Shown: positions 3,614 through 18,367 of the stretch, piece after piece
Layout: each line of letters begins with the position of its first letter
Position numbering within the stretch: the stretch's first letter is position 1
DNA from: a virus
DNA: 18,367 bases
Virus genome (UHGV): UHGV-1667981
Reading direction: 5' to 3' (one strand)
The notes under the pieces: generated by a model
Database searches by the model: none
Seen by the model: the letters and a program-made list of their open reading frames with translations, nothing else
Told to the model about the DNA's origin: nothing
Position numbers and translations under genes: made by a program

Positions 3614-3778
3614 AATACCCTCCAAATTCATATAGTTAGTGGGTTATTGCCCCTCAATGACACGAACTGTAACTCTGCCAAACGAACACATCCAGTGTTA
3701 TTTTTCGCTTTTTAATGAAATTTTTAATTTGCGTTGTTTTCTTGTTTTGGTGTATTTTATGGATGTGGAGGCTATAAT

Positions 3779-4090
3779 ATGTTTAACGTGATAACCCACC
3801 CTGCAGCACTGGATGAACTGCTTGAACTACCAGATGATTTGCGAGGTCGCATGGCCAGATTAATTGAGCGACTGGAGAAAGAAGGCAACAAACTGAAGAT
3901 GCCCCATAGCCGTGTAATAGGTGGAGGGCTTTTTGAACTACGAGTAGGGGATAAAAACATCGCAAGAACGCTGTACGCCTACGCGACTGGTAACGAAATT
4001 TATCTATTGCATGCATTTGTAAAAAAGACACAGAAAACACCGGTGAAGGCTATCGAAATCGCCAGAACTCGCCTGAAGGAGATGAACTGA
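3779..4090 (+). CDS. Type II toxin, RelE/ParE superfamily, HigB-like (Gp49-like)
   Basis: ORF 3734..4090(+); favoured start ATG 3779 with GGAGG SD 8 nt upstream. Motifs GGGLFELRV and LLHAFVKKTQKTP are recalled as typical of HigB/Gp49-like toxins. Toxin-first order, stop overlaps antitoxin start (TGATG). Confidence 0.8.
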   Translation: MFNVITHPAALDELLELPDDLRGRMARLIERLEKEGNKLKMPHSRVIGGGLFELRVGDKNIARTLYAYATGNEIYLLHAFVKKTQKTPVKAIEIARTRLKEMN

Positions 4091-4377
4091 TGAAAGCGAA
4101 AGGCATCCCGTTTAACGAAGTAAAAGAAAAACTCCTCAACACTCCAGAAGCCGTCAAAGGATATGAAGAGGCCGACAAAGAGCTGGAGATGGTCGAAATG
4201 TTATACGAAATGAGGGAAAGAGCAGGTTTAACGAAATCAGCTCTGGCTGAACGAATGGGGTTACGACCGTCAGCCATCAGCCGCCTGGAAAGCAATCCTT
4301 TAGGGGCAAGTATGAAAACTTTGGCTAAATATGCTCATGCCTGCGGCGCAGCCATCGATATTCGCGCTGTTTATTAA
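4090..4377 (+). CDS. HTH (XRE-family) antitoxin, HigA-like
   Basis: ORF 4090..4377(+), 95 aa. Helix-turn-helix segment LTKSALAERMGLRPSAISRLE. AAGGAG SD 8 nt upstream. Translationally coupled to the upstream toxin. Confidence 0.85.
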   Translation: MKAKGIPFNEVKEKLLNTPEAVKGYEEADKELEMVEMLYEMRERAGLTKSALAERMGLRPSAISRLESNPLGASMKTLAKYAHACGAAIDIRAVY

Positions 4378-4971: not shown

Positions 4972-5293
4972 CTTTGAGCGCAAGTTTCAGCCTCGTGGTT
5001 GTAAGGTGGCATGACCCTTCGCCATCAAAAATGCATTCTGAAACAGGCATTTTTTGACCACATCGTGGGCAAGTAGTAGATAGCTGCTTCTGCAGCTCCT
5101 TATAGTTTTTCCTGATCAACAAACCAATGACTTCGTTCTCCGAATATGGAACTCGCCCTGGTCTACGCAATACACAAATTTCCCCCAACATACGTAACTC
5201 GTCAGGTTCTAGAATCCAGTCCCGTCTTGATGTGCCTTCCTTCTTCAACCGTTCCCTGCGTCTCCTTTGCCGTTCTGCCGGTGTCAGCGCCAT
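4967..5293 (-). CDS. Hypothetical protein (108 aa) with Arg-rich N-terminus and CPRCG...C..H putative zinc-binding cluster
   Basis: ORF track 4967..5293(-); QRRRRERLKK then CPRCGQ...SECIFDGEGSCH. No confident family assignment. Confidence 0.5.
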   Translation of the reverse strand: MALTPAERQRRRRERLKKEGTSRRDWILEPDELRMLGEICVLRRPGRVPYSENEVIGLLIRKNYKELQKQLSTTCPRCGQKMPVSECIFDGEGSCHLTTTRLKLALKA

Positions 5294-14637: not shown

Positions 14638-14746
14638 TGTGCGTCGTTTTGACGGTAAAGTTACTTCGCTGCGGTAAATCCCGTAGCCGGGACTCTCAAC
14701 CCCGAAATCCGAACGACGCACAACACGCGCCAGCGTGTTTTTTTGT
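14638..14746 (+). ncRNA. Candidate structured small RNA or leader (c4/CA-RNA-like) ending in an intrinsic terminator
   Basis: Long-range stem gtgcgtcgtt (14640..14649) pairs with aacgacgcac (14712..14721), enclosing about 60 nt. Followed by terminator hairpin aacacgc-gcca-gcgtgtt plus T-run (14722..14746). No credible coding ORF here. Identity as a regulatory RNA is inferred from position and structure only. Confidence 0.35.
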
Positions 14747-14844
14747 GTGTATGAGCCTGCGCATATCCGAATTATGGTGGCTCAGGTGGGGCAGCCGAAA
14801 GGCTGGCCGGTGTCGTTTGGGCCGGTGTTGAGAACCCCGCTTGG

Positions 14845-14890
14845 GCTACCACCCCATAGAGATTCTCAACTCTGGTGGTAGCACTGTTTT
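14845..14890 (+). terminator. Attenuator-like hairpin (9-bp stem GCTACCACC/GGTGGTAGC, 20-nt loop) followed by TTTT, just upstream of the antirepressor operon SD
   Basis: Loop contains TTCTCAAC, which is complementary to GTTGAGAA at 14827..14834 and is also repeated (CTCTCAAC) at 14693..14700. T-run starts 4 nt after the stem. Confidence 0.35.
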
Positions 14891-15075: not shown

Positions 15076-15305
15076 ATCAGGTAAAAATGAACACTGTTGG
15101 CCTGCTGGAATCGTTGGATGAACGTCTGGCTCAGGTCTATGCGCTTGTGTCATCCGCCCATCGTACAGTCTCCAGCTGTGAGGCGTCGATTTATCTCTCA
15201 GAAGCCGGGAAGCTCCTTCAAATTGCGTGTGAGTTGACACACAAAGCACAGGGGTATTCAGCATCTCTCTCGTCGCAATTGCAGCACAATAAGGAGGCCA
15301 AATGA
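15072..15305 (+). CDS. Hypothetical protein (77 aa), second gene of the antirepressor operon
   Basis: ORF track 15072..15305(+); GAGGTGG SD upstream; ATGA overlaps at both ends indicate translational coupling. Confidence 0.55.
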   Translation: MNQVKMNTVGLLESLDERLAQVYALVSSAHRTVSSCEASIYLSEAGKLLQIACELTHKAQGYSASLSSQLQHNKEAK

Positions 15306-16084
15306 GCGCGTTAGCTGTATTTTCGTTTCAGGAAGAGCATCAGGTTCGTGTAGTGATGATTAACGGCGATCCGTGGTTTGTAGCGGCTGATGTTTGTAAT
15401 GCCATCGGGATTATCAATCATCGTGATGCTGTTGGTAAGTTGGATGAAGACGAAAAGGGGGTCGGTTCAACAGACACCCTTGGAGGTAAACAGGGAGTGA
15501 CAATTATTAACGAATCCGGCCTCTATACCCTAATCCTCCGCTGCCGTGACGCGGTGAAGCAAGGCACAACAGCTTGGCGGTTTCGCAAATGGGTAACGAA
15601 CGAAGTCTTGCCCTCTATTCGCAAAAATGGAGAGTACGTTTACGTCGAGCCAGAGCCAATGCGAGCAGCAGAGCCGTTGAACTGGAGGCAGAAAGAGTAT
15701 CTGCGAGGGCTGATTAACGATATTGCACAAAGTTTTCAATACCGAAATGCCTGGATTAGCGGTGTATGGTTGGCTTTGCGTCGGGCGTGTCGTAATCCAT
15801 CCCCGAACCCCATAACTGTTGATGATTTGCCAGCAATTACGGCAGAACTGCGCCGGATTTTGACGGCTGCTGAGTCGGCATTGGGGAACATGCGCACGTA
15901 TGAACGAGAGTTGTTGCGTGATGTTGTTCGTGGTGGTAGGCGGAGTATGTCGTGTGGTGATTTGCCCATCACCGATATCAACTCTGATCTGGAAAAGGCG
16001 TTACCCGCGCATTTTGAACTGGCAGTTCAAAAACTTGAGCAGTTGTCCGCGCAGCTAAAGCCAGCAGAAATCACCAATAAATAG
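15302..16084 (+). CDS. Prophage antirepressor with Bro-N/AntA-type N-terminal domain
   Basis: ORF 15302..16084(+), 260 aa; AAGGAGG SD. N-terminal motifs (GDPWFVAADVCNAIGI, LGGKQGVTIINESGLYTLILRC, WRFRKWVTNEVLPSIRKNGEY) match the Bro-N/AntA antirepressor domain as recalled. Confidence 0.8.
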   Translation: MSALAVFSFQEEHQVRVVMINGDPWFVAADVCNAIGIINHRDAVGKLDEDEKGVGSTDTLGGKQGVTIINESGLYTLILRCRDAVKQGTTAWRFRKWVTNEVLPSIRKNGEYVYVEPEPMRAAEPLNWRQKEYLRGLINDIAQSFQYRNAWISGVWLALRRACRNPSPNPITVDDLPAITAELRRILTAAESALGNMRTYERELLRDVVRGGRRSMSCGDLPITDINSDLEKALPAHFELAVQKLEQLSAQLKPAEITNK

Positions 16085-16221: not shown

Positions 16222-16246
16222 AAGGCACCGATTAATTCGGTGCCTT
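16222..16246. terminator. Hairpin between convergent antirepressor and protelomerase genes (9-bp stem, AATTAATT-like loop); probable bidirectional terminator
   Basis: aaggcaccg-attaatt-cggtgcctt; short T-runs on both sides. Confidence 0.45.
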
Positions 16247-16257
16247 TAACGTATGCT

Positions 16258-18177
16258 TTAGCCGAAATATGTCAGCCATGCTAACTGCATTGCTGACATG
16301 GGGCTGTTTGCACTGCCTGACCACGCATAATTCTGGCCATTATAATGAAACTCGACAACGTATGAGCCATCACCAATATTTCTCACTGGCTTAAATACCG
16401 GCTTAGATACAGGCGAAGAAGGTGCGGGTGGCTGCTGTTCTTCTACGCTTTCTTCCTCTTCCTCTTCCTCTTCCTCTTCCTCTTCCTCTTCCTCTATCTC
16501 AATTTCGTCGTCATCCAGATCGTCATCATCTGATAATTCATCCGCCTGTTCAGGTATTGCTTCCAGCTCTTCTTCGTCAGGCATAACGATTTCTGGAGTA
16601 TCTATTTTCAGCTGCCATTGTCCATTTTCGCCAACAAATTGCCCCAGAGCATCAGCAGCAAATTCCAGGTATCGACTAATCATTGTTGGGCTAAATTTGA
16701 ATGCTCTTAGCGTGCTGTTCGTGATTTTTATAGAGGGGTCCTGCTCTACCAGCTGCTTAACTGTGTTATGCAGACGAACCCCGGCATCTCCTCTGGCGAA
16801 TCCAGGCATTTCGTCATCAAGCTGCTGCAATGCTTCCAGCCTGGTATTTTCGTTTCCAGTATTTGGCCTCCATGTCTTTGAGAAGTTGGCCAGCTTGAAT
16901 TGCTTATAGTGTAATTGAGTGTTTTCATCGTCATGGCCTAAAATTTCCATAAAGAAAACATCCTCATCTACGTTTTTCCAACGAGGATCTACGCGGAAAA
17001 ACATTTCATACGCAATACGGGCATAAATAGCACGACTATCTTTATAAACACGGCGGTCATCTTTGAAAAATGATTTAACCCACGGGTTAAAAGCCTTTGC
17101 TAATATGGCATTAATACGTCCGTTTTCAGAGCGTGTGTCGTTATCTCCATAACCTTTAACGACATCATCAAAATCAGATGCTGCTGGGCATGATCGAAGT
17201 ACATTTATTAAATAAACAAATGTTTTTGCTTCGCATAATGTATATATTTTTCTGGTTATATCATCAGAAGTTCTTTTTTTAGCTTGGCCTAAAAAATCAA
17301 CGGTATACTTACCAGAAACAGTAAATGTACCTTGATACATAATCTCAATCATTCGTCTTCCTGACAATGCAGCAAGTGCAAATGCCAAAGGAGCCATACC
17401 TGAACGAGTGTTTAGATTATTTAATGTAGCAGGGCTATTTATAATATCGTAAATAGCTTGCATATATTTAGGGTAATCAATGACCACCACGTTACGTTTC
17501 TTATTGTGCAGAACGTCTGCCCATCGTTGCTGGATAGATGCGCGTTCGGCAGGGCTTAGTTGAAGATGATAGAGAATCTCATGGTTAACTTTTAGCTGAT
17601 TCAACTCCTCAAGCAAGGCAGATCCTTGCTGTAGTAATTTATATAAATAATCGCGCTTATCTTTCCAGTTATCGCTAGTTAAATCAGAAATGGCGAATTG
17701 CCACTCTTTATATTTATTTGATAATTTTAATAACTTATTATGACTTTTGTTATCACCAATTCTGATATTAGATAAATCTTCTGATAAAGGGAGAATTAAT
17801 TTTAATTTTGCCTGTAAAGCTGACATTCTCTGGCGAATATCGGCAGCAGGTAGAGAAAGCCATGATAATAGCTCCTCATTATATAAAGGATACTTTTCAG
17901 ATAGGCGATGTATATTTTTTTCAAAGCTATGATGAAGTTTATCATCAAACCGTTTTCTGGCCCTGCTCATATAGGTATTGAATGTGTTGGCTGTAATTCT
18001 TTTTTCTAATCCTTTCCCCCTAAACTTTCGCTTGTCATTAAATAATGCATTTTTAAATTTTAATGCAACAGCCTTTATTTTTTTTGTTTTTTCTCCTTGA
18101 GGACGGTCAGAGTTATCTATTGACTCAACATCGCTAACAAGTGAGTTTATTAATTCACCGATTTTTACTTTTCTCAT
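16258..18177 (-). CDS. telN: Protelomerase (telomere resolvase, TelN/TelK family)
   Basis: ORF 16258..18177(-), 639 aa; strong SD GGAGAGGAAAG upstream. Recognised from memory as closely resembling N15 TelN / phiKO2 TelK along its length (e.g. MRKVKIGELIN..., RSGMAPLAFALAALSGRRMIEI, ILGHDDENTQLHYKQF). Adjacent to a telomere-palindrome half-site at the window end. No alignment was run. Confidence 0.9.
   Translation of the reverse strand: MRKVKIGELINSLVSDVESIDNSDRPQGEKTKKIKAVALKFKNALFNDKRKFRGKGLEKRITANTFNTYMSRARKRFDDKLHHSFEKNIHRLSEKYPLYNEELLSWLSLPAADIRQRMSALQAKLKLILPLSEDLSNIRIGDNKSHNKLLKLSNKYKEWQFAISDLTSDNWKDKRDYLYKLLQQGSALLEELNQLKVNHEILYHLQLSPAERASIQQRWADVLHNKKRNVVVIDYPKYMQAIYDIINSPATLNNLNTRSGMAPLAFALAALSGRRMIEIMYQGTFTVSGKYTVDFLGQAKKRTSDDITRKIYTLCEAKTFVYLINVLRSCPAASDFDDVVKGYGDNDTRSENGRINAILAKAFNPWVKSFFKDDRRVYKDSRAIYARIAYEMFFRVDPRWKNVDEDVFFMEILGHDDENTQLHYKQFKLANFSKTWRPNTGNENTRLEALQQLDDEMPGFARGDAGVRLHNTVKQLVEQDPSIKITNSTLRAFKFSPTMISRYLEFAADALGQFVGENGQWQLKIDTPEIVMPDEEELEAIPEQADELSDDDDLDDDEIEIEEEEEEEEEEEEEEESVEEQQPPAPSSPVSKPVFKPVRNIGDGSYVVEFHYNGQNYAWSGSANSPMSAMQLAWLTYFG
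16448..16495. repeat. Hexanucleotide microsatellite (TTCCTC)x7 encoding a poly-Glu run in the protelomerase C-terminal region
   Basis: Seven perfect tandem TTCCTC units at 16454..16495 with partial flanking units; on the coding strand this is GAG/GAA giving EEEEEEEEEEEEEEEE. Confidence 0.9.
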
Positions 18178-18211
18178 CTTTCCTCTCCTGATTATTCGCT
18201 CGGATTATCGT

Positions 18212-18307
18212 AACACAATTTGAGAATAAGATAACTAATAACGCGTTAACTTAGCTACAAACTAACAGAACACAATAACGGATAGTAAACAAAAACACAA
18301 TATCGGA
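18212..18307. repeat. tos-like repeats upstream of the protelomerase gene: AACACAAT-containing direct repeats
   Basis: AACACAATAACGGA (18269..18282) and AACACAATATCGGA (18294..18307) are 14-bp direct repeats with one mismatch; AACACAAT also at 18212..18219; related GCACATAAT in the terminal half-site. Inverted CGGAAC/GTTCCG at 18304..18309 and 18333..18338. Confidence 0.5.
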
Positions 18308-18340
18308 ACGCTAAAAATTGTTCCTTGACTTTGTTCCGAA

Positions 18341-18367
18341 AATCAGCACATAATTCCCCATTATACG
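18341..18367. other. Telomere-resolution site half (telO-like): AATCAGCACATAATTCCCCATTATACG, ending at the palindrome centre
   Basis: The final 10 bases CCATTATACG are the left half of the N15 telO core CCATTATACGCGCGTATAATGG as recalled; the preceding ATCAGCACATAAT resembles the flanking N15 telRL arm. The window stops exactly where the palindrome would turn. Confidence 0.65.

Follow-up and report, generated by a model that had tools for sequence, protein, structure and literature searches.

Positions 16258-18367 of the viral genome UHGV-1667981, a sequence of 18,367 nucleotides that was analysed in full and is referred to here as the window, very probably form the telL (left telomere) end of a linear plasmid-prophage of the N15-like (Ravinvirus) type from Escherichia, and include telN, which is the protelomerase gene, together with the left half of the telomere-resolution site, tos/telRL. 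The features of the window were examined using Pfam, NCBIfam, PDB, Rfam, TRF, BLASTP and megablast. The end of the window is a known, well-described telomere system and not a new one, and an earlier note made from the sequence alone had read it correctly.

The open reading frame at 16258-18177 (minus strand) begins with an ATG at 18175-18177, encodes 639 aa and is transcribed away from the telomere. The earlier note had recognized its product as a protelomerase (telomere resolvase) of the TelN/TelK type, and the searches agree. Four Pfam domains, TelK_N, TelK_muzzle, ResT-TelK_cat and TelK_stirrup, are found in the expected order with scores of 89-171 bits (cut-offs 27-28), and the sole PDB match is 2V6E, the TelK of phiKO2 (E=4.6e-296, aa 1-536). 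In BLASTP comparisons over the full length, the protein is 77 % identical to N15 TelN and 76 % identical to phiKO2 TelK. An NCBIfam search of the protelomerase gave no match. The seven-element alignment of the telomere region referred to below covers phages of Escherichia, Enterobacter and Klebsiella, comprising this element, N15, phiKO2 and four other telomere phages. In an alignment of seven proteins, N15 TelN and phiKO2 TelK among them, residues 373-433 are invariant, as are R275 and K300; R275, K300, R382 and H415 are presumed active-site residues of the family. Tyr424, inside the invariant block, is aligned with Y425 of N15 TelN, and the Y425F mutant of N15 TelN is without resolution activity (PMC12624138). 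The domains, the homology and the catalytic block thus support the designation of this protein as a TelN/TelK-type protelomerase, with a predicted DNA cleaving-joining activity.

The last 26 bases of the window, ATCAGCACATAATTCCCCATTATACG at 18342-18367, are separated from the telN start codon by exactly 164 bases (18178-18341), as the earlier note had counted. They match the commonly quoted arm of the N15 telRL site, ATCAGCACACAATTGCCCATTATACG, at 24 of 26 positions, with two mismatches. This is the only site in the window with three or fewer mismatches to the telRL arm, and none of 200 shuffled sequences contained a match. Compared with the syntenic arm of N15, 22 of the 26 positions are identical, and 24 of 26 are identical to phiKO2. 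A degenerate form of the terminal 26-mer had no match in genome_contigs, a collection with one genome per species. The 26-mer includes a 14-nt L3-type repeat, ATCAGCACATAATT (18342-18355, plus strand), which forms the inner flank of the TelN binding site and is 12/14 identical to N15 and 13/14 to phiKO2; AGCACA.AAT within it is invariant in the seven elements. The repeats are named L1, L2 and L3 here, and the tos repeats were reportedly defined by Deneke in 2000. The remainder includes CCATTATACG (18358-18367, plus strand), which covers 10 of the 11 nt that make up the left half of telO, the 22-bp palindrome made up of CCATTATACGC to the left of the axis and GCGTATAATGG to its right, and is invariant in all seven elements. 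L3 and telO are separated by a 3-nt spacer in which the window and N15 are not the same, and at these positions the two arms of N15 itself also differ.

The base missing from the telO half is the last C before the dyad axis. The earlier note had placed the end of the window at the apex of the palindrome. The palindrome is there, but the window ends one nucleotide before the axis, which is located one base past 18367 (TATACG, the missing C, the axis, then GCGTATA) because the N15 record annotates the cut at 24802/3, with the window end aligned to N15 position 24804, and because the linear NAR688 record ends with ...CCATTATACGC. Across the position of the window end, the relatives CP025712 and PV340565 (97-98 % identical) both read ...CCCATTATACG followed by CGCGTATAATGG, which is the continuation the earlier note had predicted for the other half of an N15-type site. 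Joining the window end, the C and the reverse complement gives the full synthetic site, GAAAATCAGCACATAATTCCCCATTATACGC to the left and GCGTATAATGGGGAATTATGTGCTGATTTTC to the right of the axis. Known protelomerases all cut 6 bp apart via 3'-phosphotyrosine links, with CGCGCG between the scissile positions of TelK (PMC3558466). Given this published stagger around CGCGCG, the scissile bond of the plus strand would lie between A18365 and C18366.

Between telN and the terminal 26-mer are the tos-like repeats pointed out in the earlier note, which form conserved islands occupying matching positions in N15, phiKO2 and the four other telomere phages. The motif AACACAAT occurs four times in the window, compared with about 0.94 expected, and three of the four copies cluster in a 90-bp stretch (at 18212, 18269 and 18294), each of them on the plus strand and pointing toward the window end. 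The corresponding outer repeats, all on the plus strand, are repeat 1, GTAACACAAT (18210-18219; 10/10 identical to N15 and 8/10 to phiKO2), repeat 2, AGAACACAAT (18267-18276; 9/10 to both), and repeat 3, AAAACACAAT (18292-18301; 7/10 to both, with an AACA core that is invariant in the seven elements). Of the 55 positions that make up the three decamers, the L3-type repeat and the telO half, 48 (87 %) are identical, whether compared with N15 or with phiKO2, whereas the remaining 135 intergenic positions are 51 % (N15) and 48 % (phiKO2) identical. The invariant columns of the seven-element alignment are these repeat islands. In PhiR46_1 and in plasmid CP148365, the telR side contains several inverted copies, ATTGTGTTCT, and these would give the symmetric layout expected of a telomerase occupancy site; the corresponding side of the present element lies outside the window. 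In N15, the repeat 1 orthologue, ...GTAACAC, is where the tos PCR primer tosROC-2 ends (PMC2847241).

The AACACAAT repeats could instead be unrelated to TelN, serving as sites for another factor or being conserved solely as promoter or leader elements of telN. On the telN strand, repeat 1 does overlap TGTTAYGAT, a conserved element that resembles an extended -10, and the outer repeats are dispensable for catalysis because a 56-bp telRL is sufficient for processing (PMC3540006). However, the core of the repeats resembles the L3 repeat in the TelN site (CACA[C/T]AAT), the inverted copies on the telR side are found where no telN promoter exists, and two papers, which give the roles of the repeats second-hand, treat them as additional repeats that flank the core of the occupancy site (PMC12624138, PMC13381899). 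We therefore regard a function unrelated to TelN as unlikely.

To examine the location of related elements, the telN-tos segment was used to query 5,426 complete E. coli genomes. It was present in 17 of them, and among these sequences it was found at 23 places on plasmid records and never on a chromosome. The location of the lineage is extrachromosomal, as the earlier note held in stating that the window was not an integrated prophage. Among 29 PLSDB records of the lineage, 12 contain two inverted telN-tos copies exactly 2 nt apart, approximately nine end 0-200 nt from the axis, and eight have a single internal copy, which in the one examined (CP148365) joins sopA. Among nine IMG/VR contigs, three stop 21-51 nt past the axis, two fold back for at least 400 nt, and four have a true telRL whose palindrome arms are perfect over 21 or 27 nt. 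Stopping, folding back and an intact telRL are the outcomes to be expected from a replicon with hairpin ends together with its phage form, which bears telRL, and the comparative support for a physical end at this position is strong.

An integrated or decayed chromosomal prophage remnant that had kept the protelomerase gene and half of the tel site has next to no probability. Lambdoid prophages on thousands of E. coli chromosomes do share ~95 % identity with positions 1-1432 of the window, but in addition to the absence of telN-tos from the chromosomes surveyed, all 15 of the matches that cover at least 80 % of the whole window are plasmid records of 36-75 kb. Moreover, telN is undisrupted and retains the conserved catalytic block, the plasmid maintenance gene repA is likewise intact, as are the immunity genes, and there is no integrase or att-like junction anywhere in the window. 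It is also quite improbable, though less so, that the source molecule had an intact telRL (as virion DNA, as the circular lytic form or in a circular record opened here) and that the boundary is an assembly or record cut. The single internal copies in eight of the 29 PLSDB records and the intact sites in four of the nine IMG/VR contigs show that such molecules are recorded in this lineage; where a single copy was inspected, telN was joined through telRL to sopA, and CP148365 bears a circular label. Assemblers are known to break at palindromes, and the window ends one base off the axis rather than exactly on it. Against this, the chance that a boundary in a 46-kb element would fall within one base of the axis is ~1 in 10^4, the perfect palindrome has a length of just 42-54 bp and can be crossed by common assemblers, as those same records show, and the linear plasmid is the stable lysogen form of N15-type elements (PMC2847241, PMC10612081). 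Even if the source had an intact site, the locus would remain the same telN/tos system.

The assignment of the window end to the hairpin of a linear plasmid-prophage also has observations that weigh against it. The sequence file by itself shows no covalent closure. The window end is one base short of the axis, whereas draft contigs of relatives usually overshoot it by 21-51 nt, and some trimming or assembler behaviour is therefore involved. An exact 39-mer from the window end had no match in the two contig collections scanned (genome_contigs and viral_contigs). A scan for consensus sigma-70 promoters on the telN strand of the 190-bp leader (18178-18367) found none, and no confirmation that TelN binds the outer repeats, or that these have a regulatory role, was found in the accessible literature.

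For the telL end of a linear N15-like element, the events expected are those established for N15 TelN and phiKO2 TelK, extended to this element on the basis of 76-77 % protein identity and the conserved target. On infection, the genome circularized at cos would bear an intact telRL. A TelN dimer would bind the palindrome, either telRL or the replicated telLL and telRR junctions, and make cuts in the two strands that are 6 bp apart and flank CGCGCG, via a 3'-phosphotyrosine, with Tyr424 as the predicted nucleophile. Each 6-nt 5' overhang would then fold back and rejoin the complementary strand of its own half-site to give the closed hairpins telL and telR, and the sequence would stop one base before the axis because the molecule physically turns back there. 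Bidirectional replication of the linear plasmid driven by RepA would regenerate telLL and telRR inverted-duplicate junctions for TelN to resolve again, as in the replication cycle of N15-type linear plasmids (PMC2847241). TelN bound at the hairpin would also shield the end from SbcCD; TelN protects hairpins from Mre11-Rad50 (PMC12624138).

As telN reads away from the hairpin, its promoter must, in the linear form, be within 18178-18367, the 190-bp left half of tos. The best candidate identified is the extended -10-like TGTTACGAT (18207-18215, minus strand), which overlaps tos repeat 1 and is conserved in the form TGTTAYGAT in the seven elements. The molecule ends 150 bp beyond this overlap of the outermost tos repeat with the -10-like element. 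A putative ribosome-binding site, AGGAGAGG (18182-18189, minus strand), is located 4 nt upstream of the telN ATG, with its AGGAG core 7 nt upstream. It is conceivable, though we lean against it, that occupancy of the telomere-proximal repeats by TelN feeds back on telN expression through the overlap with repeat 1. Such autoregulation is speculative, and would tie the supply of the protelomerase and end-protector to the number of telomeres per cell. No test of it was found in the accessible literature, and one may exist in papers outside that reach.

Two further candidates in the leader were rejected. A TTGACT-18-CATAAT arrangement on the plus strand (18325-18354), directed at the apex, was rejected as a functional promoter, as TTGACT is not conserved in N15 or phiKO2, and a terminator-like hairpin at 18305-18324 was rejected as its complementarity is not conserved in either. 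The latter position, between repeat 3 and L3, contains the inverted repeat GGAAC-N10-GTTCC (plus strand). TGTTCC motifs are repeated at 18320 and 18334, and motifs of the TGTTC type recur on the same strand on the telR side of relatives.

At the other end of telN, a 10-bp stem with a 5-nt loop (16222-16246) is found 12 nt downstream of the stop codon, between telN and the convergent Bro-N gene. The minimum free energies on the two strands are -19.2 and -18.7 kcal/mol (z = -4.2 and -4.6), and the phiKO2 record annotates a 'putative bidirectional' terminator at the equivalent place. This stem-loop is a probable bidirectional terminator, though without a clear U-tract. Within telN, TRF identified a (GAAGAG)n microsatellite at 16451-16495 (minus strand; period 6, 7.5 copies, 100 % matches), which encodes a poly-Glu tract in the acidic linker ahead of the C-terminal domain. 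The tract consists of 15 Glu in this element and of 9-15 among relatives with 99 % identity elsewhere, and differences among the TelN proteins of close relatives are mostly limited to it. Because the number of Glu varies in this way among otherwise 99 % identical proteins, the linker is slippage-prone.

The earlier note had raised the possibility of an unrecognized linear replicon. This was not borne out, as relatives that are 97-98 % identical have been deposited as Ravinvirus phages or as plasmids, and a survey of the N15-like phage-plasmids of Escherichia and Shigella exists (bioRxiv 10.1101/2025.09.12.675607). Telomere phages are now recognized as widespread (PMC12042878). The element is of a known kind; its identity to Ravinvirus phage-plasmids already deposited is at the species level, and in one of these the tel sites are annotated. 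Over 16258-18367, megablast identities are 97-98 % to the Escherichia phages YDC107_1 (CP025712.1, NCBI genus Ravinvirus) and PhiR46_1 (PV340565.1), and approximately 30 records labelled as plasmids of E. coli, Escherichia fergusonii, Escherichia albertii and Shigella share 97-98 % identity over 91-98 % of the whole window. In PhiR46_1, telL and telR are annotated at the ends of the record, with the 'telL site' being the first 22 bases, and the record extends 12 bases beyond the window end. The TelN proteins of the close relatives are 99-100 % identical outside the poly-Glu tract, and their repeats and telO half are the same. The differences from them are point substitutions (e.g. TTCC vs TTTC in the L3-telO spacer and Arg2 vs Ser2 in TelN), the 15 Glu of the tract compared with 9-11 in three of the four close relatives aligned, and some accessory genes between 14 and 15.3 kb.

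More distantly, N15 (AF064539) resembles this element in having telN beside telRL and transcribed away from it, an identical half of the 22-bp telO, an L3-type repeat and three outer repeats at orthologous positions, and repA, cB-cro-Q and immA in the same arm. However, nucleotide identity across telN-tos is 72.6 % and the sequence of the acidic linker is different. TelK of phiKO2 (AY374448; 2V6E) is ~80 % identical over the crystallized residues 1-536, with the same N, muzzle, catalytic and stirrup domains, and phiKO2 shares CGCGCG between the scissile positions and 24/26 bases of the terminal 26-mer. In contrast, phiKO2 is from another host genus (Klebsiella), is larger (51.6 kb), and has a divergent C-terminal tail and divergent intergenic DNA. 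The element adds one more strain-level variant of the TelN/tos pair, which is already a biotechnology tool used for linear vectors, doggybone DNA and engineered chromosomes.

The result is of importance mainly for annotation. We recommend labelling the contig as the telL arm of a linear phage-plasmid of the N15-like type; the labels circular plasmid, chromosomal prophage and 'cryptic' contig would be inappropriate. The 12 of 29 PLSDB records with two inverted copies, entered as 'complete' and often as 'circular', run through the hairpin as fold-back chimeras. These are CP088738.1 (77 kb, labelled 'circular'), CP025712.1 (positions 5067-5120 of the piece analysed) and 10 further PLSDB records. 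Such records reach inflated sizes of 60-90 kb, with duplicated or fragmented genes; YDC107_1, for example, has a second, broken protelomerase. Two variants of telR were also observed in the lineage. In one (CP148365, positions 2868-2900 of the piece analysed, and two more loci), the palindrome is perfect for 27 nt per arm and R3 is intact. In the other (PhiR46_1 and two more loci), it is perfect for 21 nt only and R3 is replaced, with ATTATGTTCCGTTG in place of ATTATGTGCTGAT.

The remainder of the window has the gene order of N15, as determined from the annotation of E. coli plasmid CP088738, its best match (98.1 % identity, 98 % coverage; no identical record was found), together with Pfam and Rfam searches of the window. 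Holin, lysozyme and Rz lysis genes are followed by a DNA methyltransferase gene and a RelE/ParE-type pair, then by Q and cro, which are divergent from a cB-like helix-turn-helix (HTH)/S24 repressor gene, and by the gene for a 1331-aa RepA. An immA-like locus with a C4 antisense RNA, the icd and Bro-N genes, and finally telN and the telomere complete the order. Pfam matches were obtained for Q, P22_Cro, the HTH/S24 repressor, the 1331-aa RepA (Toprim and ori-binding domains) and Bro-N. The sopAB partition genes at the other telomere, cos and the lambdoid structural genes are present in relatives and lie outside the 18.4-kb window. The lysis cassette at 1-1432 (DUF4406, Rz-like and RrrD lysozyme) is the segment shared at ~95 % identity with lambdoid prophages, which are found in >5,000 of the 5,426 E. 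coli chromosomes, and this shared repeat would account for the other end of the window if the window is a whole draft contig.

Two small RNAs scored above the Rfam gathering score, isrK at 14668-14743 (54.9 bits) and the C4 antisense RNA at 14770-14856 (71.8 bits), both on the plus strand. They are upstream of a region annotated as icd-like in close relatives and of the Bro-N gene at 15302-16084, and the region resembles the P1/N15-type immA anti-immunity locus, which is governed by a small processed RNA. At 3734-4377 (plus strand), an open reading frame for a Gp49/RelE-ParE-like toxin and one for an HTH antitoxin overlap by one base; they are a toxin-antitoxin pair in an accessory region between the methyltransferase and DUF551 genes.

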